Shown here piece by piece: positions 9,736 through 35,470 of a stretch of DNA of 64,000 bases (position 1 is the first letter of the stretch; every line of letters begins with the position of its first letter). A program made the position numbers and the translations under genes. This DNA comes from an uncultured archaeon (GTDB lineage Archaea > Thermoplasmatota > Penumbrarchaeia > JASLWR01): the NCBI GenBank assembly GCA_964430885.1, contig CAYSHM010000005.1:82948-146947 (forward strand), written 5' to 3'. Under the pieces are notes generated by a model, which saw nothing but the letters and a program-made list of their open reading frames with translations, was not told where the DNA came from and did not search any database.

Positions 9736-9759
9736 AGATTCACCTATTCCTGTCTGCAA

Positions 9760-12698: not shown

Positions 12699-13151
12699 TC
12701 ATTTATTATTGCCTCGGGTAGCCCTGTAGGAGGAAATATAATCCGCCATTGAAGTACTGGCTACTGTTTCACCTATGATATCCATGGGAATGTCCTCTAA
12801 TTTTCGAAACCTTAGACATGATTTCCCCATGTTCAATTTTTTACCAGTCCTCTCGAAGGATTCCTTCAATTCCTTTTCCTTTTTCGGATCGCCGTAGACA
12901 TTCATTAGATATACCGAATAATAATTCTTCTGAGCTGCCAAGGCCGCATACATCAGGGATTGACCGTTATAGGTATCGGACAATACACTTAGAGAGACCT
13001 CGTAACATATCATACCCCAATTCATGTTTTCCTGATATCCCTCTGGAAGATTCTTGATCATCATATCCCTTATTTCCGAGATCACTTTTCTTCTTTCAGG
13101 AAGCAATTCTTCCAAATACCCTTCCACTGTAGCAGCCTTACTGCTCACCAA
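12699..13151 (-). CDS. DUF1801 (YdhG-like) domain protein
   Basis: 150 aa. The TVEGYLEELLPERRKVISEIRDMMIKNLPEGYQENMNWGMICYEV pattern is typical of DUF1801. TTG/GTG start with an upstream GGTGA. Confidence 0.6.
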   Translation of the reverse strand: MVSSKAATVEGYLEELLPERRKVISEIRDMMIKNLPEGYQENMNWGMICYEVSLSVLSDTYNGQSLMYAALAAQKNYYSVYLMNVYGDPKKEKELKESFERTGKKLNMGKSCLRFRKLEDIPMDIIGETVASTSMADYISSYRATRGNNK

Positions 13152-18400: not shown

Positions 18401-21400
18401 GCTTCTCGCCCATATCCCAATTCTCTTTCTTGATCTCCTCGGTGCACCTTATAAAGTTCTCGGCTGCTCGGTTCAATGAAGATTTGGGTATTCCCAAACC
18501 CACTAATTCGTTGTAATATATCTTGACAGCTGTCATCCGGTTCTTTATCCTGGATTTCAGATAATTTGTCTTTGCCTTGTCCAGCATATTTTGGGCCGAT
18601 TCAAACAGGCTCCTTGCAGATTGAATGTCACCCTGCTGATACAGCTCTCGTACCCTTTTCACTATCTTTTCAGGCTGTTTGACATTTATACCTTTGATGC
18701 TCGCCTTGTCCATCTCTGCACTGAGATTTTCCAAGGATTCCCTGAGATCAATTTTTTCCCGAATGGAAAACGCCGAGTCTATGGCCTTATTATAAGTTTG
18801 AATGGAAGAATCATAGTATTCCTTCTCCAGAAATATATCCGCCCTTTCTTTTAGATCCAGAATATGATCCGCGACCCCATCTTTTTCCTGTAAATAATTT
18901 AGCAGTTCATTCAATTTGGACCGGGAATCGTATGCTTTTTTCTTGATGTAATCCCTATTCAACGACTGTATGTCAGTCTCCAATTTGGACACTTCTTCCA
19001 CGAATATATCATCCATCTTATCATTGGACACTTTTTTAAACTGGTCCAATCTGCCGTAGTAATCCGCAAGATCGACACTGCCCTGAGAATCATCTTTGAT
19101 AAAATCCAAAACCTTTTCTATCCTAAATAGTTGCCTTGCGGCCAATTTGAAATCATATTCTCTTCTGCGTTCTCTTGCTTCTCTGAAAGCGGCACCACAA
19201 TATTCCTTTACTTTATCCAAGCTCCCTTCAGAGAACATTTCCTTTGCATCTTCATAGAATGTCTTCATTAGTGTTGTGTCAAAATCCAATGAAGATATGT
19301 GAGCAATCTCTCGCCTAAGAGATTCCAGTTCCTCTTTGACATTCTTATGCTCCAGGGCTTTGGACAGATCAGAGCAGATCTCATCCATCTGTCCCATAAG
19401 CCATTTGGCATCCTTGATATTGCCTTCCTTGTAATAATCGTCCAATCTTACCAGGGCTTCGGCCAATTGTTCAGTGTCCAAACCTTGTATCTCATAATTA
19501 TTAAGCATTGACCGGGTAGAATCTAGATAATTACAGACCCTCTTGACCTCTAATTCAGTTATCAGATCATCAATATCTGCTCTTCTTCTCTCAATCAAAG
19601 TCTTTGCCTTCTCGAAGGCGCCATCGCCAATTGAGCGCTTGATCTCTAAAAGTTTCATTTCCATATCTAATACGTTCTCCCCCAGCTGGGAAATATCAAA
19701 GAGCTCATCCTCCATATCGTAGAGCTTACCAAGGAGATCATTTGAGATATAATTCTCATATGCCTTCTTTGCTCTCTCCCAGCCCATGGATATACAGCTA
19801 GCGGCATTGTCATGATCATTTTTCTCAAGTCTTGACCTGGCCTTTTCAATGAAAGACCTTAGGGGATCCACATCAATACCCAAGTCAGTAAGCTCATCGA
19901 GTCTTTGCCTGAACTGGTCCAACTCGGTCCAATAGTGACTGACATATTCATTTTCAATATCAACCTCTATATCGAACAAACCCTTCCGCACCTCATCCAG
20001 TCTTCCAGTCTTGAAAATGTCGGTAATGCCTCTCAATCTGCTGTCCAATGTAAGTATGTCTTTCCCTTTTACCCCAAGCTTCCGGCATTTTTCCCTGAGT
20101 GCTTTTAATTTTCTAAATAATTCAAGTATATTCGTTTTGCTCTTAATCATGCTCCTGACCCTATCGGACAGTTCAAAAGCAGCCCGGTATCTTTGAGCTT
20201 CGAAAAGGTCGATTACCCTGTCAAGTTCCTTCTTCATAAGTTCGATGTCCTGACCAGCTTCTAGGAGTTCCGGAAAAATAACCTTGCTTTCAGATATTAA
20301 TTCAAGTATCCTTTCCTGCTGATAGGTTCCCTTTAATCTTTGTGCAATATCCCATGCACGCTTCACATCTTTACTAGCCTTTTCAATATTATCCTTCTCC
20401 ATGGAGGCCCGAGCATCGGATAATAATTCCTCCAGCGTGGAAGTGTCCATTGAAACATTTCGCCATTTTTTAATTTCCGATTCTATGGAGAACATCCTCT
20501 CTTTTAGAACCGGAACTTTCTTTCTCTGCATCTTGATGTCCAAAGAACTATCTATCCTCTTGAGCAAATCTCTGACGCCGTCTAGGTCATCCTCATTTAT
20601 CAACCTCAAGGCATCCTCAACCATCTCATCAACATCTTCGAGATCGAAATCCTCCTTCCTCAGGTCCTCGATCCTTCTCTCGGTGTTATCAAGCATTCCG
20701 GCTATAGAATTCCTTAAATGTACCCTTTTTTTATCTGCAATATCCTTCTCCAAGTTGTCGAATAATGCTTTCAGGGCCTTGAAATCGCCCTCCTCTATCC
20801 TATTCTTGATAGCCATCAATCTCTCCTCCAAAACTGAGGTATCTATTCCCTTTCTTTCCAGCATTTTCAGTGACGAGTGAACTTCCACCAATGTCTTTAA
20901 ATGGTTCCTTTTCATGAACTCATCATCGGCTTCAGTGATGTATTTATAGGCGCGTTTAACAGTACTCAATGCTGATTCTACATCATCACTTCTAAGCTTG
21001 ATCTCCGCAGCTCTCAACAAAATCTCGGCCTTCACGGGCTTCAGCCCTGCCTTTTTGAGTTTGACAAGCCTGCTCTCGGCTTCCTCCCAGAGCTGTTTGG
21101 CTTGGGAAGCGTTTTCCTGAAGCTCCCTAGTCCTGATGATTGCTTCCATTTCACCCAATAATTCTCTGCCGAGAATTACATTTGACCTATCCAAGGCCTC
21201 CTGTATATGCGGGTATTTGGTCTTCAGAAGGGCAACATCCATACCATTGGCAGCCATCGCCCCCACAGATTCCTTCAGAAGTGAGAATCGGCTATGGATC
21301 ATATCGACATTATATTTTTCCAGTTTGGCCTTGGACAATAAAGCCCCTTCTCGGGCAACTTTGGATACAAAGGGATAATCTCCCTGATAGAACGCATTTT

Positions 21401-22346
21401 GAGCTCCTAAGAACATCTCTTTTATATCTTCAATATCCACGCCCATGTTATCAAGCTTCACCAACAATCCCTGGAGGATGGACAACTCGTTTATCGCTTT
21501 TTTCATTCTAATATCATTTGTTCTTTTGGCAACATCATCCGAGAGCCGATTCAATCTGCTTTTGGCATCATGATATTTCCTTTTGATAATCCTTTTTTTA
21601 CATACCTGGAGATGTTCCAATTCCCTCTTAACATCAATACCGTCCTTTTCAAGAGACCTTATGCTCATCTCGACGTCTGATATCCGGAGTTCCAGTTCAT
21701 TTATGTACTCACTATCCCTAACCGACATCATTTCCTCGATCAATATTTCCGAAAGTTCTATCGCCTCGTCAAAATCCCCGTCCTTGAGTGCGGTTTTGGC
21801 ACCTGAATAGCTTATCTTAAAATTCCTAACACTCACACCTTTTTGTTCCAGTGACTTAGAATCCATTTCAGAAAGATCATTCAATATCTGGCGGGCTTTA
21901 GATAATTTCTGCTGGGCATTCTTTATTTTAATACCGTCCTCAAGACGTTTTATGATGGAGCGGCAATTGGAAAGAATCATTTGTGCAGCCTTGAACTTTC
22001 CATCCTTCAAGGCTTTGAACCCATCGTTCAGTCTGATACTGATTGCATTGGTATTGGCACCCTGATCCTTTAAAAACGAGGTCTCTTTGCGGGTTCTCTC
22101 GAACTCCTCCCATACCTTTTCCCTGATAGGTAGGTCCTGTTTACCTTCACCCTCGAATTTGGGACGAGCATTGGATTCCGCAGGCAAATCAACCGCATGG
22201 TTGTCATGATCAGCTGTTTCTTCTGCATGATCCTTTCCTTCACGGGACATGAGCTTGGATGCAAGATCACTCACTTTGCCGGGAGAAACACCTTCACCTG
22301 TCTTCTCCCTCTTTTCAGTGGAATGAATTTTTTTATCACGGTCCAA
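15402..22346 (-). CDS. Giant (2314 aa) cytoplasmic all-helical repeat protein; ~20+ degenerate ~95-aa repeats
   Basis: Uninterrupted 6945-nt ORF. No signal peptide, TM segment or Walker motif. Recurring unit [KLN]G[IV]D....L.....(~20 aa)..G[DN][FWYL]..A..L. Examples: KGIDTSVLEERL...EEGDFKALKALFDNL; QGLDTEQLAEAL...KEGNIKDAKWLMGQM; KGINVKQPEKIV...QQGDIQSARSLFESA; GGIDQSSSFRYL...EEGNLEGAEKAARESL. TTG start at 22346 with a GGAGG SD 6 nt upstream. Confidence 0.7.
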   Translation of the reverse strand: MDRDKKIHSTEKREKTGEGVSPGKVSDLASKLMSREGKDHAEETADHDNHAVDLPAESNARPKFEGEGKQDLPIREKVWEEFERTRKETSFLKDQGANTNAISIRLNDGFKALKDGKFKAAQMILSNCRSIIKRLEDGIKIKNAQQKLSKARQILNDLSEMDSKSLEQKGVSVRNFKISYSGAKTALKDGDFDEAIELSEILIEEMMSVRDSEYINELELRISDVEMSIRSLEKDGIDVKRELEHLQVCKKRIIKRKYHDAKSRLNRLSDDVAKRTNDIRMKKAINELSILQGLLVKLDNMGVDIEDIKEMFLGAQNAFYQGDYPFVSKVAREGALLSKAKLEKYNVDMIHSRFSLLKESVGAMAANGMDVALLKTKYPHIQEALDRSNVILGRELLGEMEAIIRTRELQENASQAKQLWEEAESRLVKLKKAGLKPVKAEILLRAAEIKLRSDDVESALSTVKRAYKYITEADDEFMKRNHLKTLVEVHSSLKMLERKGIDTSVLEERLMAIKNRIEEGDFKALKALFDNLEKDIADKKRVHLRNSIAGMLDNTERRIEDLRKEDFDLEDVDEMVEDALRLINEDDLDGVRDLLKRIDSSLDIKMQRKKVPVLKERMFSIESEIKKWRNVSMDTSTLEELLSDARASMEKDNIEKASKDVKRAWDIAQRLKGTYQQERILELISESKVIFPELLEAGQDIELMKKELDRVIDLFEAQRYRAAFELSDRVRSMIKSKTNILELFRKLKALREKCRKLGVKGKDILTLDSRLRGITDIFKTGRLDEVRKGLFDIEVDIENEYVSHYWTELDQFRQRLDELTDLGIDVDPLRSFIEKARSRLEKNDHDNAASCISMGWERAKKAYENYISNDLLGKLYDMEDELFDISQLGENVLDMEMKLLEIKRSIGDGAFEKAKTLIERRRADIDDLITELEVKRVCNYLDSTRSMLNNYEIQGLDTEQLAEALVRLDDYYKEGNIKDAKWLMGQMDEICSDLSKALEHKNVKEELESLRREIAHISSLDFDTTLMKTFYEDAKEMFSEGSLDKVKEYCGAAFREARERRREYDFKLAARQLFRIEKVLDFIKDDSQGSVDLADYYGRLDQFKKVSNDKMDDIFVEEVSKLETDIQSLNRDYIKKKAYDSRSKLNELLNYLQEKDGVADHILDLKERADIFLEKEYYDSSIQTYNKAIDSAFSIREKIDLRESLENLSAEMDKASIKGINVKQPEKIVKRVRELYQQGDIQSARSLFESAQNMLDKAKTNYLKSRIKNRMTAVKIYYNELVGLGIPKSSLNRAAENFIRCTEEIKKENWDMGEKLIAESEMHLDSQKYLFNIDTLNKKLEAAVYICIDIEREGVKIAKAKRLLEDMRELLRGREGIDDEEFESISDNIEHALTSAREREHQFRLSRLEIEMEKAETLIDRYQTLDIDMTGPQLLLKKAWECFNNEDTKRGLILVAQSLKSAQNISDTFFKTDSQNLIRELNELMDRTARISGEIDHLRTTFEKGKRLYHSEEYEECTLKLRSLKGICQDLLKAHDYRSRIEYLKTRLLTMKKGKESYLRKVEYIEKLMEEGDFEGAGIKLEETSREIKREFEAHRRKHVSDTIKATRRKVKELGSGGIDQSSSFRYLQKAILMLEEGNLEGAEKAARESLENAVKTRNLRGSQIKAELIGLERAVLNKAKAQKWGEEPVVKLSALLKSMESADEHDLTKIMLIFQDFMEVEEKSQEKWRFDRKLLDVKDYFYNLSPLLPRDIAREIYEQIEKITFIDGKSLQGKGRLNLVNMDDVKDRIIKRTENLINRDIRSINKAIDQMGGVRGLKQMSIEGIEAFEFYSRELDNIPIENQVSRLKVIRSLKELTSMLGRRAMKVALIQRHEKLKMKYAKLSFHSALFVEMDKWLDKADHALGENDVHAAKKHLDKADESLKAAKKMQNRKKARTILETTISEMKRIGVSLERAPSLRDMFSRTKQAAKDGDVSQVRTSCEEMVYFSKELIKRKERESARNAIQDLDAVLSSRSDMVDEEHYRNELNRSERKYSSGDYRYAYSLANKAMDHYNQSMNKYMSEKLQEKYKRGEALVRGTRNKGIDVSQAWSLLTEGRRCMERGEWDLSKELLAESIMVTKQLIRWKNISDMEKESPSWEEKIRALALQGAGTNQLRTQHSRILSHLGNGDLELAMDLKASLIRDIEVAGQGLFKKKIKENINECERLMFEISSFNGDISELKVQVDRSFNLMNQGEVEISYDITKECIEMANQILNGLLRTKAGVIVEATREIIEESRNPEAKEAFVKAKKYYEKGEFRQALELAQDAMRMA

Positions 22347-22454: not shown

Positions 22455-25340
22455 TTAGATGCTCAGGAATACTACGGATATTATGGTTGACAGTACAAGC
22501 CATAATACAAATGTGGGCAGCAGTCGTTTTATCAGTATTGACTCCTTGTTCTTGAGACCAACTGCCGTCGCTATCACTACTGCGTTCATTGGTGAAATCA
22601 TCTCACCTGCACTCGAACCAAGTACCTGAGCCGCAGCAGTTCTTACGAGTGGCAACCCCAATGACCCTGCAGCTTCCATATGCAGAGAACCGAAGAGCAC
22701 ATTGGATGTGGTTGTTGAACCAGTAAGTGCTGACCCGCTCATACCTATGGAAGGAATGAAATACTTGTAAGCACCTCCAACAATATCCACTATTGTGGAT
22801 GCTATGGAAAAGGTCATGTCAAAATATCTCATGATATTCGCAATGGCCATAAATGCGGCAATAGTCAGCATTATGGGAAGGACCTCTTTTCCAGTCTGTT
22901 TCAATCCCCGTGCTACCATTCTAGCAGGCTTGATTGAATCAGCCAGACGGCCTATCTTTACCCTTTTACCTTCAGGTTCGGTTTCGAATTCTATTTCATC
23001 ATCGTCATCATCTTCAAATTCCAGCTCGAAATCATCATCGTCATCATCTTCAAATTCCAGCTCGAAATCATCATCGTCATCGTCGTCATCAAATGAAACC
23101 ACAAATTCATCGCCGGCATCTTCAATTATGAATTCTTCATCATTGTCTTCATCATCGTCGTCATCCTTAATGTCTATTGAATGGTCCCCTCCATCATTTA
23201 CCAAAGGCATTCCCATTGACAATGAATGGGTTCTTGTTCTTTTTTTCTTCTTTTTACGCTTGGGCTCGGTAATGCTTTCAACATCATCTTCCTTCTCATC
23301 GACAACTGGTTTTTTCTTCTTCTTTTTCTTTTTCTCTTCATTCTTATCCTGTTCATCTGAATCTTCATCATCACTTTCATCGGCGGCAGGTCTCTTTCTC
23401 TTTTTCTTCTTTGGCTTGACTTCGGCCTCCATATCCCTCTTCTTCACCTTTTTCCTTTCCCCTTCAACTCCATGGTCCTTTTCACCTGCCCTCTTGGAAC
23501 CTTTACTCTTTTCCAGAGCTCTCTTTTTTCCTGGGTGTTTTCTCCCATCCGATCTTTTATCCTTTTGAGAAGCATCTTTTTTCTTCTCTTTTTTATTCTG
23601 CTTATCTTCATCGTCATCAATTGGAGATATCTCATCGGATTCCAGATTTCTTATGAAACTACCGTCGAGATCGCTCTCAGGGGAAAAACTAGCTGCGATT
23701 TTTACAAACAATGGAACTGTGATTGCGACTATAAGAAGAATCGTTCCAGGCGAATAAAGCGGGGAGAACATCATGACCTTCCCTTCCGAAACTGTGTCAA
23801 AGGGAACGCTCAAGGTCATAAAATCTGCCGTGAGAAGACCCTTCAACGGCATTAAAAGACGTGTGACCAGCAGGATGAGGACCATGAAGCCCATTGACCA
23901 GAAATAAGGCCGAGCCAATAAGGTATTCTTGGGTTTGATCGATCCGCTGTCCTTTCCTGATTTCTTCTTCTCATCACCCCATCCAAGTATCCCCTTCTCC
24001 TTTTCGTTTAGCTTCTTCACAGATACTAATTTCTCATAGAGTATAACAAATAACAGGGTCGCGCCACCGGCAATGATTGTTGGAAGTTCGGGGCCAGTGA
24101 AGTAGGCTACCAGGGCCTGTATAGTTCCGTATACCGCCCCCATTCCCATGAGCAGGACTATATCTTCCCTGAGGTCCGGATCCTTGAAGTCTGCAAGGGG
24201 GCCCTGTTTGGTGTATACCAGGCTCATTATCAGAGGGGCAGGGATACAGAGTATTATCATATAGATCCCTATCCATCCTGAAAGGTCCATAAGGGCTAGT
24301 CCAGTAACTTCTTTTAGTGCTATAATGCTTACCCCGAGAAGTCCGAACACTGAAGATATTGAATTACCAAAAAGACAGAGGACTCCAACACCCACTCTGT
24401 TAAATCCCAAAGATACCAGCATGATGGCGGCAATAACAAAATTTGAACCGGCTGGGGCCACTGTTGCCATGATCAGAGCAAAGCAGAAACCTATAAGCAG
24501 GATCTGGTGCTGTTTATCTGTAGATATCGATTTGAAATCCTCCTTCAACTGTTCCATGGCACCTACCTTTTCCAGCATCTTAAGGAAGAAGAAAGCACCA
24601 AATATGGCATAGATGTAATCTAATCCACCCCATAGGGCCGAATATAATATGGTGGCCACTATCTTCTCAAAGGCGGCACCTACCTCCAATTCCTGTCTGA
24701 AAAATACCAATGCCAGTATAATAGTTATTCCCAGAGCGCAGGGGGCCACTATCTTTGAGGAAATCCTAAATACCAGAATCATGAAAAATACAAAAACCAA
24801 AGGAATAATCGCTATCAACGCCAGATACCATTCAAATTCATCATCCTCTTCATCACCGATGAAACCGCTAAGGTCAAGTATTACCTGATTATCGTTCTTA
24901 GAAGGATCTATAATATCTTCATCTGTTTCCGGTGCCAGACTTATCCTTATTCGCATTCGGCTTACTGATGTATTGTCAATTTCAAGGAACACGCCTATGT
25001 TATCCTCAGGTTTATCGCTTTGGAGAGTTTCATTATATATTGTTCTCCAAAGACCTCCGTCATTACCATGGTCCAAATCAACAAAAATGGATATGTCAGT
25101 CCCCATATGGTTCCTGATTGTAACGATAATCTCCAAGGTCTTTTCGGGATCCACATTTTCTGTAACCTTGTTTCCCTTAACTGTCAGGGTCTTCTGATCC
25201 TGCCTCAAGGTCACTTCCTTGATGGCAATGTTATTCTCAAGGGATTCGGATTCTTCCTGACCTAGTACAAAGGGAACGGACGATAATAATATCAGCAGGA
25301 CCAATAAAATTGGAATGTAAATCTTTCTTAAATATACCAT
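22455..25340 (-). CDS. L-lactate permease (LctP) family transporter with N-terminal extracellular domain and a large hyper-charged cytoplasmic insertion
   Basis: LctP signature blocks: DKQHQILLIGFCFALIMATVAPAGSNFVIAAIMLVSLGFNRVGVGVLCLFGNS (cf. E. coli LldP DQRLQMLIVGFCFGAFLEG...[23 protein letters not shown]), and C-terminal LTGSTTTSNVLFGSL...GEMISPMNAVVIATAVGLKNKESILIKRL (cf. LTGSDTSSNALFAAL...[28 protein letters not shown]). Signal peptide plus ~190-aa extracytoplasmic N-domain. ~230-aa K-rich then D/E-rich insertion (KKKKKKKK..., DDDDDDDDFELEFEDDDDDDFELEFEDDDDD). ATG at 25340; the track start 25349 is GTG. Confidence 0.75.
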   Translation of the reverse strand: MVYLRKIYIPILLVLLILLSSVPFVLGQEESESLENNIAIKEVTLRQDQKTLTVKGNKVTENVDPEKTLEIIVTIRNHMGTDISIFVDLDHGNDGGLWRTIYNETLQSDKPEDNIGVFLEIDNTSVSRMRIRISLAPETDEDIIDPSKNDNQVILDLSGFIGDEEDDEFEWYLALIAIIPLVFVFFMILVFRISSKIVAPCALGITIILALVFFRQELEVGAAFEKIVATILYSALWGGLDYIYAIFGAFFFLKMLEKVGAMEQLKEDFKSISTDKQHQILLIGFCFALIMATVAPAGSNFVIAAIMLVSLGFNRVGVGVLCLFGNSISSVFGLLGVSIIALKEVTGLALMDLSGWIGIYMIILCIPAPLIMSLVYTKQGPLADFKDPDLREDIVLLMGMGAVYGTIQALVAYFTGPELPTIIAGGATLLFVILYEKLVSVKKLNEKEKGILGWGDEKKKSGKDSGSIKPKNTLLARPYFWSMGFMVLILLVTRLLMPLKGLLTADFMTLSVPFDTVSEGKVMMFSPLYSPGTILLIVAITVPLFVKIAASFSPESDLDGSFIRNLESDEISPIDDDEDKQNKKEKKKDASQKDKRSDGRKHPGKKRALEKSKGSKRAGEKDHGVEGERKKVKKRDMEAEVKPKKKKRKRPAADESDDEDSDEQDKNEEKKKKKKKKPVVDEKEDDVESITEPKRKKKKKRTRTHSLSMGMPLVNDGGDHSIDIKDDDDDEDNDEEFIIEDAGDEFVVSFDDDDDDDDFELEFEDDDDDDFELEFEDDDDDEIEFETEPEGKRVKIGRLADSIKPARMVARGLKQTGKEVLPIMLTIAAFMAIANIMRYFDMTFSIASTIVDIVGGAYKYFIPSIGMSGSALTGSTTTSNVLFGSLHMEAAGSLGLPLVRTAAAQVLGSSAGEMISPMNAVVIATAVGLKNKESILIKRLLPTFVLWLVLSTIISVVFLSI
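22985..23095 (-). repeat. Perfect 36-bp tandem repeat (2 full copies + partial) encoding the DDDDDDFELEFE units inside the transporter's acidic insertion
   Basis: tcatcatcttcaaattccagctcgaaatcatcatcg at 23005-23040 is repeated exactly at 23041-23076. A degenerate copy lies at ~22985-23004 and GAT/GAC-rich tails follow. Confidence 0.85.
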
Positions 25341-25925
25341 CAAATACACCGGGATTAGTTTTTAGAAGGTTATATAATACCAAAATCTGTACAGTTTTGG
25401 ATTTATAAGGTTATCTCACTGAAATAATTATTGGTTTTATTAAAGTTTTTCCAGATATATTCCCTACTAAATACTCCTCTTGATAAAATAAGCATCATGC
25501 CGTTTGCGATAATTGATACGGCATATTGGAATATTTAATCAAACTCAAGGATCCTTTCGGGACTCCCACGGAAGCCCCCTAATCTAGACTAAATATGCAT
25601 CATACTATATACCAGCCCAATCTATAATATACAATAATTATATAGTATGAAATATTAACTACCTCGGCCCAAAGGCTTAATATTGATTTGAATGGAATAT
25701 GTTAATTATTGAAGATATTATTAGATCAAGAATGATGAAAGAAAATAATGCCAGTTGAATTGGTTTTTCGACCAAATAGAGAAACAAATTCCTTCCCTGG
25801 ATCATGAAGTAATAATTAAAAGCATTTTAAATGTCATAATATTGCCTCGAATATTTGAACAAAAACGTTAAGGAATTCATGTGATAAGCTCTTAATCAAA
25901 GCTGGAAGCGGCCAAGGTGTTGAAA

Positions 25926-28900
25926 ATGGGTAAGAAGAACAGAAAGGATATTGAAAAGGAGGTCCTGTCAATAGTAAGCGAGAAAACAGGATACCCCATC
26001 GATATGATTGATATCGAACATGATATGGAAGCCGACTTGGGTATAGATACTGTCAAACAGGTAGAGCTTTTTGGTGCTGTCAGAGAAAATTACAATCTTC
26101 AAGAGGAAGAAGGCGTCAATCTTTCCGAATATGCTTCTATTAAGGATGTAGTCCAGTTCATTGTGGATAAACTCGGCATTCCCGAGATGTCTGAGGTAGA
26201 TGCAGGTGAGGAAGAAGGTGCGGAATCGGAAGCAATGACCTCAGAGGAAGTGAAAAAAGATGAGGGTGAGGGTAGCAAAAGCGCACCAGTTCAAAAACAT
26301 ACAGTAAACATCATTGAAACTGAACGGGATAGGGATGAAATAACTTCCTATATCCATAGCTCCTTGGAACCCATAGCCGTAGTAGGCTTGGGCGGAATTT
26401 TTCCCGATTCAAACAGCATAACTGAATTTTGGCAAAATATAATTGAGGGGAAGGATTCCATTGACGAAATACCTGAAGATAGATGGGACATCTCAACCTT
26501 CTATGATCCCGACTCTAAAACCTCTAAGAACAAGAGTTATACAAAAATAGGGGCTTTCGTAAAGGATTTTGAGTTCAATTCCATAGATTTCCGTATTCCT
26601 CCAAATATTATCAAGCACATCGATCCCGTTCAGCTCTGGACCCTTGCAGCTACAAAGGAAGCTTGGGAGGATGCAGGTCTACATAAGAAGGATGTGGCCC
26701 GGGATAGGGTCAGTGTTATTCTAGCCAATGCCCAGGGTGGAGAACATCGAGACACGAACAGCAGTTTGGTATATCTGTACGACTTCATCAGGGCAATGGA
26801 AAAAAGCTCGGTCTTCAGTAACATGAAAAAGGCAGAGCGGAAAATCAAGGTGGAAGCCATAGAAAAGGAATTCATGAAGAACATGCCCGAGATAAATGAG
26901 GACACAATGCCTGGTGAATTATCGAACATTGTTGCATCTCGAGTTGCAAATAGATTTGATTTCTTCGGCCCTTCATTCACCTGTGATGCAGCATGTGCTT
27001 CCTCCTTTGCCGCCATAGACACAGCAGTGAAATATTTGAGGGAAGGTGATGCGGACATTCTTATTACTGGAGGAGCTGACCGGAGCATGAATCCATCCAC
27101 CTATGTGAAATTCTGCAAGATAGGAGTCCTGTCAAAGACCGGCAGCCGCCCCTTCGATGCAAAGGCCGACGGTTTCGTCATGGGTGAAGGAGCAGGTATT
27201 TTAGTACTGAAAAGGCTTTCAGATGCTATAAAGGACCTGGATAAGGTCTATGCGGTAATCAGAGGTATTGGTGCTTCCAGCGATGGCAAATCCAAAGGTA
27301 TCACCGCTCCAAATCCCCTTGGGCAGAAGAAGGCGATAGAGAGAGCTTATGAAAAAGCAGGATATGACCTCAGCACTGTTTCCCTTATCGAAGCTCACGG
27401 TACCTCCACAGTAGTAGGTGATGCTACCGAGCTGAAGACATTGGCAGACATTTGGAGCGGAAAGGGATTCCAGAAACAGAGTGTTGGAATAGGATCCATC
27501 AAGTCGCAGATAGGTCATCTGAAAAGCGCGGCTGGGGCCGCAGGACTTATCAAAATGATATTGGCCCTTCATCACAATACCTTGGCACCTACTATTAACT
27601 ATAAGGAAGCCAATCCTAATGTCAATCTTGATGAAACTCCATTCTTCGTAGTAACCGAACCTCGAAAATGGGAAAGACCAAGAATTAAAGGGGAATTGAT
27701 TCCCAGGAGAGCCGGCGTAAGTGCTTTCGGTTTTGGCGGGTCCAATTTCCATGTGACATTGGAGGAATTTACTGGCAATTATCCGGATCTGACTGCTGGA
27801 ATTGAGAGTACAAAACCAACCCATAGCCCTGAAAAAGTAATTGATCCTGAGCTTTATCTTAAGGAACACTCGGATATGGAGGGTGATGTCATAAGCATAT
27901 CCGCGGATTCTCTTGATGAACTTAAGGCTCAGGCCCAAACCCTATCATCAGACTTGAAGAAAGCCCTTAAGGATGAAGGAGAATACTTCCGATTGGCATC
28001 ATTTGCATATGATATCAATCGGATATTGGATTCCGATAAAATACGGACTTTTAGACTAGCGGTTTCTGCTCAGAAAGGGAAAGAGATGGCGGATCTGTTC
28101 CTGCTGGCAGCTGAGAACGTGCACAGCACGGAAAGGATGGCAATGCTGGAAAACAAGGGTATATTTTTCAGCAATCCTGACATATTGACTGAACTCGGAC
28201 ATTTAAAAGATGGTGTTGTCCATCCTCCGAAAACAGGCTTCGTTTTCCCTGGCCAGGGATCGCAGTATATCAATATGCTGAGGGATGTGAGCAATAAGTT
28301 TAGAGCTGTAGAAGACACCTTCATTGAATCTGATGAAATAATGACTGATATTATCGGCGAACCCCTTACAAATATAATCTTTTCAGATGAACATGATTCA
28401 GAACAAGATGTTAAAAGAAAACAGAACAGGATGACTGATACGGAAATTACCCAGCCTGCAATGATTACTGGTGATATTGCACTGTACCGATTATTCAAAA
28501 TGTACGATCTGGAACCTGCTGCGGTAGCCGGGCATTCCCTTGGAGAATACGGTGCATTAGTGGCTTCTGAGGTCATGGATTTCAAAAACGCGCTTTTGGC
28601 CTCATCGGCAAGGGGAAGGGAGATGGCGAACATCGAGATCGAAGACAAGGGCAAGATGGCCTCGGTGGCTGCCGGAGAAAAGGAAGTTCAGGAAATTTTG
28701 GATTCCATCGACGGCTATGTAATAGTAGCTAATAAGAATTCCTACAGCGAGAGTGTGATTTCAGGAGCTTCCAAAGCCGTGGAAGAAGCTGTGGAGAAAC
28801 TCAATAAAAAAGGCATCAATACGATTTGGCTGCCCGTGTCCCATGCATTCCATTCTGAAATCGTTGCTCCGGCCAAGGTTCCGCTGAGAAATTTCCTTGA

Positions 28901-31900
28901 GAATCGGGAATTTCATTCGCCTTCAATCCCTGTTCTTACAAATGTGGACGGCAGCTTCTACCCCACAGGTAGAAATGTCAAGGGCAGGGTAATCGACATT
29001 CTAGTTGATCAGATCGCAGGAGCTGTGGAATGGGTTAAGGAAATGGAAGCATTCTATAATGAATTGGACATACGATTCTTTGTGGAAGTTGGAACAAAAA
29101 GGGCTCTGACTACAACCATCAATCACATATTCCATAACAGACCGCATAAGGCTGTCCTGACCAACCATCCTAAAAAGGGGGGACTGAGGACCTTCAATGA
29201 AGCTTTGGCGCATCTTAGTGCCTGCGGTGTGAAGATCAAATGGCCGGCCCCTGATAACCGCACAGTCTATACCGATCTATTTGTGGATGCAGGAATGGAG
29301 TTGAAAAAGAAGGTTCAGGTGCAAAAAAGGGCAGTCATATCACCTCCGGTGAGTCAAAGGAGAGAAGGAAACTATACAGAAGAGATCCAAACTGTAGTGC
29401 CGGTAGATACTACTATATCCGCTCCATCTTCGATGGATATATTGTTGGACATCAAACCCAAGAACCATATAGCTGGTATTGATGAAACTGCCTATAAGGA
29501 TTTCATTCAAACCGAAGGCCAGGAACTATTGGAAATAATCAATGACAGATTCAGGAAATTCCAGGCAAGCAGGGGTGGAGAACTTCTCAACCGCATTAGA
29601 TCTTTAGGTCTCTATCTTGGGTCGGTTTCCATCTCAGGTACTGGAATAGGGCTGCCAGGAAAAGGAAAAAGGGTTTTCTCGACCTCAAATGTGGATAAAA
29701 TCCTTCAGGGCGGAAATTTTATAGATAGACTATCTGAAGAACAGATGAAAAAGATGTGCGATAAGAACATCATCCGGCTCCTCAAGATGCCTGACGGCGA
29801 TGCAAAAATGATACCTATAGATAATATTGACCAGGTCATCAAGTTTGCCGGGCTTAGGGGTGATTTCGATGTGGTCGAGGAATACGGTGTTGAAGTGAGT
29901 ATTGCCGGAGCCCTTGACATTACCTCCAAATTGGCCATTGCCGCCGGAATTGAGGCTTTAAGGGATGCTGGGATACCCTTGGTCAAGGAATATTATACCA
30001 CTTCAACGGGAACATATCTTCCCAACAAATGGGTGCTGCCCGAACCCCTTCAGGAAGGGACTGGTGTAATATTCGCTTCAGCTTTCCCAGGATATGATAA
30101 TCTGATAGATGAGATATCCCGTTATCTAGCCCACAAATTCACCTCAAGATCAGCTATTGAAAAAGAGGGACTCTATGAAGATATCCTTGAGCAGATAAAT
30201 GATAAGAAAATCAAAGAGCAATTGAGGGATTGGATAAGCAAAAATAGAATTAGGCAGGAGGATGAATACAGGGAAGAGGAAGAATATAAGTTCAACCGGA
30301 AATTCCTATGGAGGGTCCTCTCAATGGGTCATTCCCAATTCGCCCAGTTCATAAAGGCAAAGGGACCCAATACACAGGTGAACGCCGCCTGCTCATCCAC
30401 AACCCAAACCTTCAGCATCGCCGAGGATTGGATCAGAACAGGCAGGGCTGAGAGAGTGATAATAATTGCTGCTGATGATGCTACCTCTGAAAATATGCTC
30501 CAGTATGTAGGCAGCGGATTTATAGCAATCGGAGCTGCAACTGTAAAGGACAAACTTGAGGAAGCGGCACTGCCCTTTGACAGAAGGAGGAACGGCCTTA
30601 TAGTCGGGATGGGTGCTGCGGGATTCGTAGTAGAAAGAAAAGAGGACATTCTTAGAAGAGGAATGAAACCCGCAGTGGATCTCCTAGGAACATACCTTTC
30701 CAACAGCGCTTATCATGGTTCAAGTCTCGATGTTGAACATATTACTTCTGAACTTGAGAACTTCATCAGAAGGGTGGAAAGAGCTAACAATCTCAACAGG
30801 AACGACATAACAAAAAATATGCTATTCATGTCCCATGAAACCTTCACTCCTGCCAGGGGCGGAAGCGCAGATGCGGAGATGGACAGCTTGCGACGTGTGT
30901 TCCCTGACACCTACAGAAATATCATTGTAACCAATACCAAGGGCTATACGGGACATGCACAGGGCGCAGGTATAGAGGACGCAATAGCCATAAAGGCCCT
31001 TCAGCACGGCAGAACCCCGCCTATCGCAAATCTCATGGAACCCGATCCTAATCTGGGGGACATCAAGCTGTCCAAGGGAGGAAAACATCCATTCGAATAC
31101 GCCTTAAGGCTGGCTGCCGGGTTCGGCTCTCAGGTTGCTTTCAATCTGCTGAAACTTCAATCAAGAGAAGGAGAAAGGATGGCCGATGAAATAACCTATC
31201 AGAACTGGCTTAAGGAGATATCCGGACTTGAACAGGTGGAAACCGAGGTTGCCCATAATACCCTTAGAATAAAGGACGTAGGGCCTGGAAGGATCGTCAG
31301 TAAAAGACCGGTATCCAAGGTAAAAAATCTTTCAAGGGACGATTCTATTTCTTCGGAACAGAGAAGTCAAAAGAGCAGTATTCCGGAAGGAGAGGAAATA
31401 ATAACCGCTAAAAGCAATGATGAGAGGGGGCAAATAACCGAAGAAGTTATGGAGATGGTTGCCGAAAAAACAGGTTATCCCGTGGATATGCTGGAACCGG
31501 ATCTGGATATGGAAGCAGACCTGGGTATCGACACTGTAAAACAAGTGGAGCTCTTCGGTGCTATCAGGGAAAATTATAACCTGGAACAGGAGGAAGGGGT
31601 CAATCTCTCGGACTACGATACTCTGGACGGCATCGTTGAATACATTTATTCCAGATTGCTGAAGGAAGGGAAAATTGTTGAGGAGGCAATTCCAAAAGGG
31701 GAAGAGTTAGCCGTTCAAACGGAATCAGGGGAATCAAAGCTGCATTTAAAAGTGGAGCGGAAGGTTCTTGAGATAGTAGCTGAAAAAACAGGATACCCTG
31801 TTGATATGCTGGAACCAGATCTGGATATGGAAGCAGACCTGGGTATCGACACTGTAAAACAAGTGGAGCTCTTCGGTGCCATTAGGGAAAACTATAAGCT

Positions 31901-34900
31901 GGAACAGGAAGAGGGAGTAAACCTTTCCGAATACGGCACTCTTCGAAGCGTAATGGATTATATTCTATCCCGATTGGATATTCCAATTGGTCCCAATGAA
32001 GGCTCTGCAGGAGACATTGATGCCACTGAGAATACAACCGGGACCGGCGAAGATGAAAAAACTGATTCAGGGAGAAGCAGACCTGACGAGATAATGGAAA
32101 AAGTACTCGACATGGTGGCAGAAATGACCGGTTATCCCGTGGATATGCTGGAAGCAGACCTGGATATGGAAGCAGACCTGGGTATCGATACTGTTAAGCA
32201 GGTGGAGCTCTTCGCCGCTATCAGGGAGCATTACGGTCTTGAAAGGGATGAAGGCGTTAACCTGTCCGAGTTCAACACCCTTAGGAGTATCGGCGATTAT
32301 ATCGATTCAAGGGTCGGTGATACTGAACCTGCATCAGAGGGCGTTGGAGCAAAGACATTACAAGACGAATTGACCGAGGACACCGAAGGCGATGAGGTAA
32401 TGGATCCTGAAGCAAAGGAGCTAAGACGTTACCTGACACGCTATATACCAAAGGAGCTGGGGAAGGATGAATGGTTTGATCTTAAGAAGAAGAATGTTAT
32501 TGTCGTCATGGATAAGGAAGGAATAGGGAAAGAGTTAATGAAAACTCTGGCCTACAAGGGAGCAAATGTCATTCAGTTCATCTATAACAGGAAGAAGAAA
32601 GAACATAACAACGATCAATACAAGGCTGACCTGGGAGATATTGAAATGCTGGGGGAGATAAAAGAAAAAGTACTGAAGAATCACGGAGATATTTTCGGTA
32701 TACTTTATCTGCAGTCTATGGACAAGGAAAATGAATTGAAAAAAATAGATTTCGGGGAGTGGAAGGAACTTAACAGAAAAAAAATCCGGACCCTTTTCAA
32801 TCTCGGAAAAGTTTTCATTGCTGACCTGAAAATGGGCTCCGAGGACAGCGAAAAGAGAAAGAACAAGTTCCTAGTATCGGCCGTAGAAATGGGCGGATCA
32901 TTTGGAATTGAAGGTGACGGTAAATTTTCCACCCCTGTTCAGGGCGGGGTATGCGGACTTACCAAAGCGTTAGGTAAAGAAATGCCGGAAGTTTTGGTCA
33001 AATGTATCGACCTGGGGAAAATATCCCGTAAGAAGAAAGCAGCAGACCTGATTCTAAATGAACTTCTTTTTGGAGATGAACGACTGGAAGTGTGCTATAA
33101 GAAGGGCAAACGGAGAATTGCCCAGATGTACCATTCCGAATTGGACAAAACCAAAAAGGCCAATTTGAAAATCAACCAAGAATGGGTCTTCATAGTACCG
33201 GGCGGAGGGTTTGGGATAACTGGTGAAATTACCAAGGACATTGTCAGACAATTCAAACCCCGGATAATCGTCATGGACATAGCCGAACTTCCGGAAAACA
33301 TAGAGGAATTGGCGGGATATGATGAAAAACAGCTTGATGATTTCAAGAAAGAGCTTTTCCAAAAGCTGAAAAAAGAGAAGGACAGGGTCACTCCAGTAAT
33401 GCTTGAAAGGAAATTCGGAAGTTATACCAAAGCCATTACAATATTTAGAAATCTTCAGAAAATGAGAGAGATGGGATCCAAGGTGGATTATTTCCTATGT
33501 GATGTAACTGACCAGAAAAGGGTAAATGAGGTTCTGGACGAGGTTCGTAAGAAATACAAACGCATAGATTGTATTATTCATGCCGCTGGACTTGAGATAT
33601 CGAAGCTGATCACCCAAAAACCTCCAGAACAATTCGATCTTGTTTACGGGGTCAAGGTGAACGGCGCCTTTAATTTATTCCAAGGAACCAAGGACGATAA
33701 GGTCAAGGCCTACGTGACCTTTTCCTCAGTGGCCGGCCGGTTCGGAAATATCGGTCAGACTGATTATTCCTCGGCTAACGATCTTCTAAATAAATATATG
33801 GCATTGATAAGCAGAGAGAGAAAAGGTAAGGCAAAGGCCATATCATTGAATTGGACAGGATGGAGAGGGGTTGGAATGGCAACAAGGGGCTCGCTATTGA
33901 AGATATTTGATGAGGCAGGCGTCACCCTTATACCCTTGGATTTCGGCAAGAAGAAGGTTAGGTTGGAGCTGCTCTATTCAGGAGACGAATCCGAGGTTAC
34001 AGTTGCCGGAAATGTAGGTTTTCTTGATGCAGATGGTATAATCATACCCAATGGCCAGGATATTGAGAGTTGGGATATGGAGAGATCAATGAAAATGGAA
34101 CCCGAAAACTATCCCTTTGTGGATAGGGTCTTGGAATACGAGAAGGGAGATAAAGTAGTTGTTGACAAATTACTCCATACGGAAAAGGATCGGTATTTGA
34201 AGGACCATTCCATCTCCGGAACGCCTTATCTTCCCGGTGTCATGGGATTGGAAACATTCGCTGAAGCTAGCTCCCTGCTGTTCCCTGAAAAAAACATTAT
34301 TGAGTTCAAAGATGTGGTCTTCAAGAGGCCGGTCAAACTCCTTAGGGGTAAGGAGGTTACTATTCGTACTATCTGCAGTGTATCAAGCACGAAGAAAGAC
34401 AAGGTAGAACTTGATCTCCGTATTGAAAGCGATTTCATCAATCCGAAGGGCGTGAAGATGGGGGAACCAAGGATCCATTTTACTGGAAAATGCCTAATGG
34501 ATAAAAAAGGACCGGGTAAGAAGAAGATTAAAATACCGAAGAACATCACCACAGATGTGGATCCAGTTATTGGCAATTCTGAGATATACAAAAGATTCTT
34601 CCATGGGCCGGCATTCCAGATCCTCGGGGGAATAATAGAGACAGGGGATAAAATGAAAAAGGGCGAAAAGGCCTGGGGAGTATTTAAAGAACCTAAAGGA
34701 GATTTCTATTCGGATCTTGACGATTTCCGATTCAGTTTCACACCCATGCTAGCCGAGTTCGGCTTCCAGACCTGCGGGATTTTTGATATGTTCCATAGGA
34801 GCAATATGTCGCTGCCGGACGGTATTGAGAAAGTATCCTTCTTTTCATCTGCAAAGGATCGAAGAAAAATAAAGCAGAACATTGGTCAAAAGGGAACGCT

Positions 34901-35060
34901 ATGCAGAATAACCTTTAAAGGGGACCGGGAAGGAGACCTCTCGCCATACAGTATTTATGATGTGGAAATTATGGATCCAAAGGGAAATATCATTCTTAAA
35001 ATGAAGGACTATCGGATGATCAAGACCGGGGAGTTGGAAGAGGAAAAAAGATGGAAATGA
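25926..35060 (+). CDS. Type-I PKS / PUFA-synthase (PfaA)-like megasynthase: carrier-like(N-term)-KS-AT-KS-carrier-like x3-KR-DH(PS-DH)
   Basis: 3044 aa from ATG 25926 (AGGTG SD 6 nt upstream; the track ORF starts at GTG 25917). KS1: TCDAACASS active Cys, EAHGTSTVVGD and KSQIGHLKSAAG His motifs. AT: GFVFPGQGSQ, GHSLGEY, HAFHS. KS2: NAACSS Cys, YHGSS, KGYTGHAQGAG. Carrier domains: DMEADLGIDTVKQVELF (x4; N-terminal plus three tandem). KR: GIGKE and GGGFGITG Rossmann motifs, YSSAN. DH: HSISGTPYLPG (HxxxGxxxxP). Confidence 0.9.
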   Translation: MGKKNRKDIEKEVLSIVSEKTGYPIDMIDIEHDMEADLGIDTVKQVELFGAVRENYNLQEEEGVNLSEYASIKDVVQFIVDKLGIPEMSEVDAGEEEGAESEAMTSEEVKKDEGEGSKSAPVQKHTVNIIETERDRDEITSYIHSSLEPIAVVGLGGIFPDSNSITEFWQNIIEGKDSIDEIPEDRWDISTFYDPDSKTSKNKSYTKIGAFVKDFEFNSIDFRIPPNIIKHIDPVQLWTLAATKEAWEDAGLHKKDVARDRVSVILANAQGGEHRDTNSSLVYLYDFIRAMEKSSVFSNMKKAERKIKVEAIEKEFMKNMPEINEDTMPGELSNIVASRVANRFDFFGPSFTCDAACASSFAAIDTAVKYLREGDADILITGGADRSMNPSTYVKFCKIGVLSKTGSRPFDAKADGFVMGEGAGILVLKRLSDAIKDLDKVYAVIRGIGASSDGKSKGITAPNPLGQKKAIERAYEKAGYDLSTVSLIEAHGTSTVVGDATELKTLADIWSGKGFQKQSVGIGSIKSQIGHLKSAAGAAGLIKMILALHHNTLAPTINYKEANPNVNLDETPFFVVTEPRKWERPRIKGELIPRRAGVSAFGFGGSNFHVTLEEFTGNYPDLTAGIESTKPTHSPEKVIDPELYLKEHSDMEGDVISISADSLDELKAQAQTLSSDLKKALKDEGEYFRLASFAYDINRILDSDKIRTFRLAVSAQKGKEMADLFLLAAENVHSTERMAMLENKGIFFSNPDILTELGHLKDGVVHPPKTGFVFPGQGSQYINMLRDVSNKFRAVEDTFIESDEIMTDIIGEPLTNIIFSDEHDSEQDVKRKQNRMTDTEITQPAMITGDIALYRLFKMYDLEPAAVAGHSLGEYGALVASEVMDFKNALLASSARGREMANIEIEDKGKMASVAAGEKEVQEILDSIDGYVIVANKNSYSESVISGASKAVEEAVEKLNKKGINTIWLPVSHAFHSEIVAPAKVPLRNFLENREFHSPSIPVLTNVDGSFYPTGRNVKGRVIDILVDQIAGAVEWVKEMEAFYNELDIRFFVEVGTKRALTTTINHIFHNRPHKAVLTNHPKKGGLRTFNEALAHLSACGVKIKWPAPDNRTVYTDLFVDAGMELKKKVQVQKRAVISPPVSQRREGNYTEEIQTVVPVDTTISAPSSMDILLDIKPKNHIAGIDETAYKDFIQTEGQELLEIINDRFRKFQASRGGELLNRIRSLGLYLGSVSISGTGIGLPGKGKRVFSTSNVDKILQGGNFIDRLSEEQMKKMCDKNIIRLLKMPDGDAKMIPIDNIDQVIKFAGLRGDFDVVEEYGVEVSIAGALDITSKLAIAAGIEALRDAGIPLVKEYYTTSTGTYLPNKWVLPEPLQEGTGVIFASAFPGYDNLIDEISRYLAHKFTSRSAIEKEGLYEDILEQINDKKIKEQLRDWISKNRIRQEDEYREEEEYKFNRKFLWRVLSMGHSQFAQFIKAKGPNTQVNAACSSTTQTFSIAEDWIRTGRAERVIIIAADDATSENMLQYVGSGFIAIGAATVKDKLEEAALPFDRRRNGLIVGMGAAGFVVERKEDILRRGMKPAVDLLGTYLSNSAYHGSSLDVEHITSELENFIRRVERANNLNRNDITKNMLFMSHETFTPARGGSADAEMDSLRRVFPDTYRNIIVTNTKGYTGHAQGAGIEDAIAIKALQHGRTPPIANLMEPDPNLGDIKLSKGGKHPFEYALRLAAGFGSQVAFNLLKLQSREGERMADEITYQNWLKEISGLEQVETEVAHNTLRIKDVGPGRIVSKRPVSKVKNLSRDDSISSEQRSQKSSIPEGEEIITAKSNDERGQITEEVMEMVAEKTGYPVDMLEPDLDMEADLGIDTVKQVELFGAIRENYNLEQEEGVNLSDYDTLDGIVEYIYSRLLKEGKIVEEAIPKGEELAVQTESGESKLHLKVERKVLEIVAEKTGYPVDMLEPDLDMEADLGIDTVKQVELFGAIRENYKLEQEEGVNLSEYGTLRSVMDYILSRLDIPIGPNEGSAGDIDATENTTGTGEDEKTDSGRSRPDEIMEKVLDMVAEMTGYPVDMLEADLDMEADLGIDTVKQVELFAAIREHYGLERDEGVNLSEFNTLRSIGDYIDSRVGDTEPASEGVGAKTLQDELTEDTEGDEVMDPEAKELRRYLTRYIPKELGKDEWFDLKKKNVIVVMDKEGIGKELMKTLAYKGANVIQFIYNRKKKEHNNDQYKADLGDIEMLGEIKEKVLKNHGDIFGILYLQSMDKENELKKIDFGEWKELNRKKIRTLFNLGKVFIADLKMGSEDSEKRKNKFLVSAVEMGGSFGIEGDGKFSTPVQGGVCGLTKALGKEMPEVLVKCIDLGKISRKKKAADLILNELLFGDERLEVCYKKGKRRIAQMYHSELDKTKKANLKINQEWVFIVPGGGFGITGEITKDIVRQFKPRIIVMDIAELPENIEELAGYDEKQLDDFKKELFQKLKKEKDRVTPVMLERKFGSYTKAITIFRNLQKMREMGSKVDYFLCDVTDQKRVNEVLDEVRKKYKRIDCIIHAAGLEISKLITQKPPEQFDLVYGVKVNGAFNLFQGTKDDKVKAYVTFSSVAGRFGNIGQTDYSSANDLLNKYMALISRERKGKAKAISLNWTGWRGVGMATRGSLLKIFDEAGVTLIPLDFGKKKVRLELLYSGDESEVTVAGNVGFLDADGIIIPNGQDIESWDMERSMKMEPENYPFVDRVLEYEKGDKVVVDKLLHTEKDRYLKDHSISGTPYLPGVMGLETFAEASSLLFPEKNIIEFKDVVFKRPVKLLRGKEVTIRTICSVSSTKKDKVELDLRIESDFINPKGVKMGEPRIHFTGKCLMDKKGPGKKKIKIPKNITTDVDPVIGNSEIYKRFFHGPAFQILGGIIETGDKMKKGEKAWGVFKEPKGDFYSDLDDFRFSFTPMLAEFGFQTCGIFDMFHRSNMSLPDGIEKVSFFSSAKDRRKIKQNIGQKGTLCRITFKGDREGDLSPYSIYDVEIMDPKGNIILKMKDYRMIKTGELEEEKRWK
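31430..32300 (+). repeat. Three tandem ~315-bp repeats encoding the carrier (ACP-like) domains; copies 1 and 2 share a 62-nt identical core
   Basis: atctggatatggaagcagacctgggtatcgacactgtaaaacaagtggagctcttcggtgc occurs identically at 31501-31562 and 31818-31879. A third diverged copy lies at ~32153-32215. Confidence 0.85.
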
Positions 35061-35107: not shown

Positions 35108-35470
35108 ATGGCAAAGGATTCATGTCCCCATAGGATTGAGGAATTTCAAAGGGAAAGAGAGAGAATGAACAAATTGATAATGGAATACGGCGGGAAGGAT
35201 ATCAAGAGGTTCTTCAGCATTGATTCCTCTGTTTACAGGAATGGAGCTCTTTCGAAAAAAACCAAAGAACTTCTCGGTCTGGTATCCTCCCTGGTCCTGA
35301 GATGTGAGGACTGTGTGAACTACCATCTTATTCATTGTAAAAAGGAAGGATACAGCACGGAGGAATTGATGGAAGGATTAACTGTTGGATTGATCATAGG
35401 AGGGTCTATCACAATTCCACATATCAGAAGAGCCCTGGATGCTTGGGTTGAACTTCAGGAAAAGGATTGA
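35108..35470 (+). CDS. Carboxymuconolactone decarboxylase (AhpD-like) family protein
   Basis: 120 aa. The RCEDCVNYH motif is typical of CMD/AhpD-core proteins. Confidence 0.6.
   Translation: MAKDSCPHRIEEFQRERERMNKLIMEYGGKDIKRFFSIDSSVYRNGALSKKTKELLGLVSSLVLRCEDCVNYHLIHCKKEGYSTEELMEGLTVGLIIGGSITIPHIRRALDAWVELQEKD

Follow-up and report, generated by a model that had tools for sequence, protein, structure and literature searches.

Threonine in place of serine at the phosphopantetheine-attachment position of a PfaA-like megasynthase from an uncultured Thermoplasmatota archaeon and of its mostly bacterial family

In every carrier protein of fatty-acid, polyketide and non-ribosomal peptide synthesis that has been characterised to our knowledge, the phosphopantetheine arm is borne on a serine residue, and the protein-modification catalogues are not known to list any but the serine-linked form. 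The 64-kb stretch of archaeal DNA analysed here (the window, a part of the 410-kb contig CAYSHM010000005.1 of an uncultured member of the Thermoplasmatota) encodes an iterative megasynthase related to PfaA in which all four acyl carrier domains have threonine at that position, and the question raised by this locus is what such a threonine is for. Three options had been put forward in a first-pass annotation of the window, namely a carrier modified in a non-canonical way, carrier-like domains working without the prosthetic arm, and an inactivated synthase kept for another role.

The megasynthase gene (25917–35060 of the window, forward strand) was recognised from the list of open reading frames (ORFs) and the translation, from Pfam and from TIGR02813, and its product has the order ACP-KS-AT-KS-ACPx3-KR-DH, where ACP denotes acyl carrier protein, KS ketosynthase, AT acyltransferase, KR ketoreductase and DH dehydratase. 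All four carrier domains read DLGIDTVKQVEL. The N-terminal carrier domain (25947–26183; PF00550, 28.3 bits) has its threonine codon ACT at 26049–26051, corresponding to ORF residue 45, and the three internal carrier domains at 31431–31667 (30.9 bits), 31749–31985 (32.3 bits) and 32088–32324 (34.8 bits) have theirs, also ACT, at 31533–31535, 31851–31853 and 32190–32192, respectively, all on the forward strand. Individually, therefore, each domain exceeds the PF00550 gathering score of 20.8 bits. A degenerate DNA pattern for DLGIDTVKQVE was found at exactly four sites in the window, which are the four carriers, against an expectation of zero from 100 shuffles.

The position of the threonine within the domain was assigned by alignment and by modelling. 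In phmmer searches against solved structures it falls on the serine of the DSL, DSV or DSI motif in PigH, in the Aquifex ACP and in three further carrier proteins. In the AlphaFold2 model of internal carrier domain 3 (pLDDT 88.6) helix II begins at residue 38, which is the threonine itself, and the model superposes on bacterial ACPs in Foldseek with TM values of 0.8–0.9. The predicted structure thus shows the small helical fold of ACPs, in which the attachment residue opens helix II, while the conserved serine that PF00550 describes as the attachment site (D-S-L/I/V) is replaced by threonine in four of four copies, as the first-pass annotation had claimed. Its statement that the codon is ACT or ACA in each copy is to be amended, ACT being used in all four. 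That a single codon is seen at all four sites, in spite of the near-saturated synonymous sites described below, may reflect codon preference or chance.

Agreement among four copies in one gene could arise trivially from recent duplication or gene conversion, but this was ruled out by the divergence of the carrier copies at synonymous sites, which is near saturation (pS 0.53–0.81). The dN/dS values between the copies are approximately 0.12–0.19, where computable. The four carrier copies are thus old paralogues and not recent duplicates, and it follows from the two measures together that the threonine has been kept by selection in each of them.

The same residue was then followed through the homologues of the window protein. 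The 120 best full-length homologues (37–53% identity) contain 584 carrier domains, of which 569 have threonine at this position and 7 have serine. A one-domain phmmer search against 1.84 billion representative proteins gave 2915 matches at E <= 1e-10, a count that includes serine-type PfaA; among the top 143 representatives, 92 were all-threonine, 41 were all-serine canonical PfaA proteins and 10 were mixed or gapped. The retrieved canonical PfaA domains read DLGIDSIKRVEI, and the resemblance of the rest of the motif to carriers of polyunsaturated fatty acid (PUFA) synthases, pointed out earlier, was thereby borne out. A genome scan with one genome per GTDB species returned at least 573 matching stretches, from which 79 loci were kept. 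Threonine-type arrays are present in 78 of these 79 loci from species-representative genomes, spanning at least eight phyla; the hosts belong to Actinomycetota, Chloroflexota, Elusimicrobiota, Acidobacteriota, Myxococcota, Gemmatimonadota, Rhodothermales and Thermoplasmata, with the cultured organisms Nonomuraea rosea, Planobispora takensis, an Amycolatopsis and Elusimicrobium minutum among them.

Threonine at the attachment site is accordingly the rule of a large, mostly bacterial, uncharacterised family and not a lesion of an archaeal lineage. The earlier argument that a threonine conserved in every copy is no random lesion holds on both counts, by the selection on each copy and by the survey of homologues. 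The converse suggestion, that the substitution might prove to be ordinary family variation shared with homologues of demonstrated activity, is half correct: the homologues do share the threonine, but none of them has a demonstrated activity.

A different serine does not offer itself as the true attachment site, as no alignment column reaches 50% serine across 951 threonine-type domains, and the route of refutation by way of another conserved serine is thereby closed. Between the threonine-type consensus and the canonical PfaA carriers the sole difference in a hydroxyl residue is the exchange of serine for threonine at the canonical column. The serine of the 'NLS' motif in the four window copies was considered and rejected, because no more than 55% of the VKQVE sub-type retain it and the bacterial majority have arginine instead.

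Serine and threonine do interchange at this position between close archaeal relatives. The first carrier domain has serine in the proteins P0022 and P0042 and threonine in their nearest counterparts P0029, P0139 and P0021, with 76–80% identity outside that residue, which amounts to a swap at orthologous domains. A minority of all-serine arrays also occurs in the context of the threonine family (DLGIDSVKQ[A/G]E and DSVKVAE), namely at locus L043 of Clostridium sp. DSM 8431 and in P0169, P0217 and P0253; P0169 bears the same type of fused phosphopantetheinyl transferase (PPTase) as the proteins described next. Such arrays represent natural serine controls for experiments on the threonine forms.

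The enzyme that would be needed to load these carriers is commonly found with them. At the Elusimicrobium minutum locus, the threonine-type synthase is followed 17 bases on by a PPTase (PF01648/AASDHPPT_N) and then by a carboxyltransferase, and a hidden Markov model (HMM) built from this E. minutum enzyme was used to detect PPTases elsewhere. A C-terminally fused PPTase domain is borne by 35 of the 267 collected proteins. The 79 genome loci comprise 5 with a fused PPTase, 55 in which a PPTase gene stands apart but at most about 8 kb away, 8 that show none and 11 that could not be judged owing to contig ends, so that the PPTase is fused or nearby in 60 of the 68 assessable loci. The fused archaeal PPTase domain, aligned to Sfp of Bacillus subtilis, retains the GKP, SISH, GxDxE and WSxKE..K motifs. 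The archaeal protein P0021 has the order ER-KS-AT-KS-ACPx6-KR-DH-PPTase, in which the enoylreductase (ER) is an N-terminal FabK/PfaD-like domain, and its carriers are of the threonine type only; P0029 likewise combines a fused PPTase with threonine carriers only, and P0008 also has a PPTase fused at its C-terminus.

In many actinomycete loci, such as those of Planobispora (L047) and Amycolatopsis (L073), the PPTase gene lies approximately 5.3–5.6 kb after the synthase. In Nonomuraea rosea (L023, 2298–18527) the synthase is flanked by a 969-aa acyl-CoA-dehydrogenase-like protein and by a 1819-aa single-chain, eukaryote-style acetyl-CoA carboxylase; the spacing in the other loci fits one intervening carboxylase gene of this kind. 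The actinomycete loci thus look like operons combining a self-contained malonyl-CoA supply with the synthase.

The state of the ketosynthases bears on whether the carriers are in use. The Cys-His-His triad of the second KS is present in 121 of 121 relatives; in the first KS the cysteine is found in 103 of 103 aligned segments and both histidines in 95 of 103, the remaining 8 being gaps. Since its triad is intact in all 121 relatives, the second KS-like domain reads as a real ketosynthase and not as the chain-length factor (CLF) of the published scheme, which gives two potentially active ketosynthases per chain in threonine-type synthases. The threonine carriers look used, because such conserved catalytic residues only make sense with thiol-tethered substrates.

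It could be held, on the contrary, that the threonine carriers are never modified and serve as arm-less scaffold, spacer or docking domains of a synthase that is inactive or has another role. The S36T variant of the Escherichia coli ACP cannot be phosphopantetheinylated, does not complement and is non-functional (PMC3340395), no member of the family has an assigned product, and a PPTase was found neither in the window nor beside its closest relatives P0002 and P0004, all of which would suit that explanation. It is nonetheless unlikely when set against the family-wide conservation of motifs that need a thiol-tethered substrate, against the PPTases with intact catalytic motifs in the great majority of assessable loci, and against a D-T motif and helix II that are conserved, in the 951-domain comparison, as strongly as in working PfaA carriers. 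The all-threonine proteins with a fused PPTase count against it in particular, as their chain contains no other carrier on which the PPTase could act.

The best reading is that the threonine is probably the acceptor of 4'-phosphopantetheine in the threonine-type family, because the conserved catalytic residues, the PPTase linkage, the all-threonine proteins with a fused PPTase and the interchange of serine and threonine all point in this direction; jointly with it, the four domains of the window protein are best explained as true acyl carriers belonging to an iterative synthase of the PfaA kind. The co-occurring Sfp-type PPTase, whether a C-terminal fusion or the product of a neighbouring gene, would transfer phosphopantetheine from CoA to the threonine hydroxyl at the N-terminus of helix II, and the resulting holo-carriers would shuttle malonyl and acyl thioesters among the AT, the two KS, the KR and the DH, as in PUFA synthases. 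We lean, a shade less firmly, towards the wider proposition of a PfaA-like threonine-phosphopantetheine family with a co-evolving, threonine-accepting Sfp-type PPTase, comprising thousands of proteins in at least eight bacterial phyla and in Thermoplasmatota archaea. With regard to the three options of the first-pass annotation, non-canonical modification is favoured, whereas arm-less carriers and an inactivated synthase are disfavoured by the intact motifs and the PPTase linkage.

A very unlikely alternative is that the threonine bears some group other than phosphopantetheine, be it a direct O-acyl oxoester, a phosphate or a ribosyl-dephospho-CoA type group as on the carriers of citrate lyase and malonate decarboxylase. 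Nothing speaks for this directly; what it draws on is the lack of any report of threonine-linked phosphopantetheine. The linked enzyme is of the Sfp type and not a transferase of the CitX/MdcG type, it is established that a carrier without the arm of approximately 2 nm could not reach the KS, KR and DH pockets, and the interchange of serine and threonine at orthologous domains argues for the same chemistry on both residues.

Several points weigh against the threonine as phosphopantetheine acceptor. An adjacent PPTase could in principle serve other carrier proteins, and a threonine-accepting PPTase is hypothetical, because the canonical AcpS rejects threonine in the S36T variant (PMC3340395). 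No biochemical study of any family member, be it a mass spectrum or a product, was found in the literature. The Pfam domain set of the window protein contains no ER, Pfam scans detected none of the partner genes pfaB, pfaC, pfaD or pfaE within the 64 kb, so that no pfaABCD(E) cluster is present, and the product of the window synthase is not predictable, because both the ER domain and nearby pfaB/C/D partners are lacking. No PPTase was detected in the window by a six-frame HMM scan, by Pfam on the 32 ORFs of at least 150 aa outside larger ORFs (bar those at 3315–4076 and 12699–13151), or by an inventory of the leftover ORFs and a reading of two unannotated ORFs of PPTase size. None adjoins P0002 or P0004, and a protein profile search, limited in its reach, placed no PPTase match on the contig of the window.

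In a metagenome scan with an archaeal PPTase profile, most of the matches were generic PPTases of the Sfp type on contigs unrelated to the window, no contig came from the sample of the window, and threonine carriers occurred within the 6-kb flanks at just 5 of 45 long loci; with so generic a search pattern and so short a flank, the scan is uninformative. As the window covers only 64 kb of the contig, it is not concluded that the organism has no PPTase; if one exists, it would have to be encoded outside the window. The remark in the first-pass annotation that the lineage typically lacks PPTases does not provide the relevant frame, for many Thermoplasmatota relatives have a fused PPTase, while none was found for the sub-clade of the window.

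This sub-clade comprises P0001, the database copy of the window protein, together with P0002, P0003 and P0004 (51–53% identity, in several assemblies). Its members have one or two extra N-terminal carriers of the threonine type and, unlike other archaeal relatives such as P0021, neither a fused reductase nor a fused PPTase. P0002 is the next-closest relative, 52% identical to the window protein, and its 90%-identity cluster includes proteins that NCBI assigns to a Candidatus Thermoplasmatota archaeon. A loading function may be considered for the N-terminal carrier of the sub-clade.

A further possibility is that the synthase of this sub-clade has been parted from its PPTase and survives as a relic, without function or put to another use, even though the rest of the family may be active. 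The failure to find a PPTase in the 64 kb, beside P0002 and P0004 or, by profile search, on the same contig is in keeping with a relic, as is the established knowledge that archaea as a rule are without ACP-processing enzymes. We consider it improbable in view of the purifying selection on the carrier copies with their near-saturated synonymous sites, the conservation of the sub-clade over several assemblies, and the partial coverage of the contig by the PPTase search together with the restricted reach of the profile search. The motifs of both KS, the AT, the KR and the DH are, in addition, all intact in the window protein, as judged from the translation and the motif positions. A decayed pseudogene, in its turn, was ruled out by the 9.1-kb open frame with every catalytic motif.

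If the threonine is indeed the acceptor, this family would break the serine-only rule of carrier proteins, for the first time in nature. Attachment to threonine would depart from that rule, because the S36T form of the E. coli ACP is not modifiable. A large natural threonine family with intact catalytic domains and its own PPTase would imply either that the serine rule is incomplete or that the synthases function by some route as yet undescribed. Serine is taken for granted in annotation patterns and in engineering rules, in E. coli its exchange for threonine serves as a null allele (PMC3340395), and a 2026 survey of PUFA-like synthases still speaks of 'the conserved Ser'. No earlier report of threonine-linked phosphopantetheine or of a DLGIDT-type motif in this context was found in open-access papers or bioRxiv, although subscription journals may differ. 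Orthogonality to AcpS and resistance to beta-elimination or to removal of the AcpH type would be possible properties of the PPTase/carrier pair, the phosphodiester may have a higher chemical stability on threonine than on serine, and a threonine-specific pair could find use in orthogonal labelling. Cultured hosts are at hand in Elusimicrobium minutum, Nonomuraea rosea and Planobispora takensis and, according to the literature, in Roseiflexus. The synthase occurs, moreover, in archaea that otherwise build isoprenoid lipids.

Counted from a GTG codon the synthase ORF has 3047 codons and is the longest gene of the window. P0001 is identical to the window protein, begins at the ATG at 25926, which is probably the true start, and has 3044 aa; it is recorded in NCBI, JGI and ENA assemblies on contigs of up to 410 kb. 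The window protein scores 1070.3 bits against TIGR02813 (omega_3_PfaA), above the NCBIfam cut-off of 1010.1. The first ketosynthase (26367–27776; PF00109/PF02801 at residues 151–562, with an extension to 620) has its cysteine in DAACASS and its histidines in EAHGTST and QIGHLKS. The acyltransferase (28239–29216; PF00698 at residues 775–1003, TIGR00128 fabD at 772–1072) has the active-site serine in GHSLGEY and an HAFH motif as is typical for malonyl-specific ATs. The second ketosynthase-like domain (29367–31406) contains the second PF00109 stretch and a PF08545 match at residues 1488–1523, in a region of approximately 1150–1830. The Pfam-matched core of the ketoreductase (33450–33866; PF08659 at residues 2512–2650) has its catalytic tyrosine in TDYSSAN, and the PKS-type dehydratase (34113–35057; PF21089 at residues 2733–2826) has the HxxxGxxxxP motif at LKDHSISGTPYLP. 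All these domains lie on the forward strand.

The neighbours of the synthase are of the housekeeping type (lactate permease, a CMD-family protein, glutamine synthetase, queuosine salvage, DUF531, quinolinate phosphoribosyltransferase, GrpE/DnaJ and a DRG-type GTPase). A 120-aa gene of the carboxymuconolactone-decarboxylase (CMD)/AhpD family (35108–35470, forward strand) starts 48 bases past the synthase stop on the same strand; its functional tie to the synthase is unproven, because the gene is absent beside P0002 and P0004. Directly upstream on the opposite strand lies a giant ORF of 2314 aa (15402–22346, reverse strand), for which no Pfam family reaches its curated threshold, the only matches being sub-threshold ones to YfdX (25.3 against 26.6 bits) and COG4_N. 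The lactate permease gene (22455–25349, reverse strand) encodes a 964-aa protein whose L-lactate permease domain spans residues 177–552 and whose C-terminal 400 residues or so are without a family match. Two further genes are of the surface-protein type, one of 1775 aa with a Kelch propeller, LamG and Ig-like domains (50167–55494, forward strand) and one of 1227 aa in which a lamin-tail domain is fused to two phospholipase-D-like domains (6076–9759, reverse strand). Composition gave no signal of recent horizontal transfer, the GC content being 0.42–0.45 over the gene against 0.37–0.46 in the flanks, and tRNA and Rfam scans of the window gave no matches.

One of the closest known systems is the secondary lipid synthase cluster that Shulse & Allen (2011, PMC3098273) defined as 'Type R'. 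It consists of one pfaA homologue with the order KS-MAT-CLF-ACP(3-6)-KR and a PPTase gene after it. The hosts named are Koribacter, Solibacter, Elusimicrobium minutum and Roseiflexus, an acetyl-CoA carboxylase gene is sometimes present and no product has been assigned; the arrangement of synthase and downstream PPTase was thus described independently of the present analysis. The synthase family studied here appears to match this group. With its KS, malonyl-type AT (MAT), second KS-like domain, three internal carriers (within the range of 3–6) and KR, the window protein has the Type R layout, and the E. minutum locus is a threonine-type relative with exactly the published one. Among the relatives retrieved are E. 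minutum and members of Acidobacteriota and Chloroflexota, at about 40–43% identity. Two features set the window apart, namely that the downstream PPTase, defining for Type R, is missing from it and that its sub-clade adds N-terminal carriers outside the published scheme. The words 'threonine', 'serine' and 'archaea' occur nowhere in the main text of PMC3098273. The synthase family and its PPTase linkage were already known; the systematic threonine at the attachment site appears to be without an earlier report.

With PfaA of the Shewanella/Moritella type (TIGR02813) the window protein shares the KS, the malonyl-type AT, the tandem carriers, the KR and the PKS-type DH, as well as a nearly identical carrier consensus, VAEKTGYP..ML.LD.DLEADLGID[S/T]. 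It differs by its archaeal host, by the additional carrier at its N-terminus and by a second intact KS that is placed after the AT and ahead of the tandem carriers, and the carriers of its family read TVKQ(V/A)E, beginning with the threonine, where those of PfaA have SIKRVE. The enediyne polyketide synthases (PKSE) are iterative type I enzymes of the order KS-AT-ACP-KR-DH-PPTase with a single serine-bearing ACP and no second KS; the archaeal proteins P0008, P0021 and P0029 resemble them in the Sfp-type PPTase fused C-terminally after the DH, whereas the window protein has no fused PPTase. The S36T variant of E. coli AcpP, finally, presents the same exchange of serine for threonine at the corresponding site in the same fold, but it is an engineered dead allele, whereas in the family described here threonine is the natural and conserved residue and a PPTase of its own usually accompanies the synthase.

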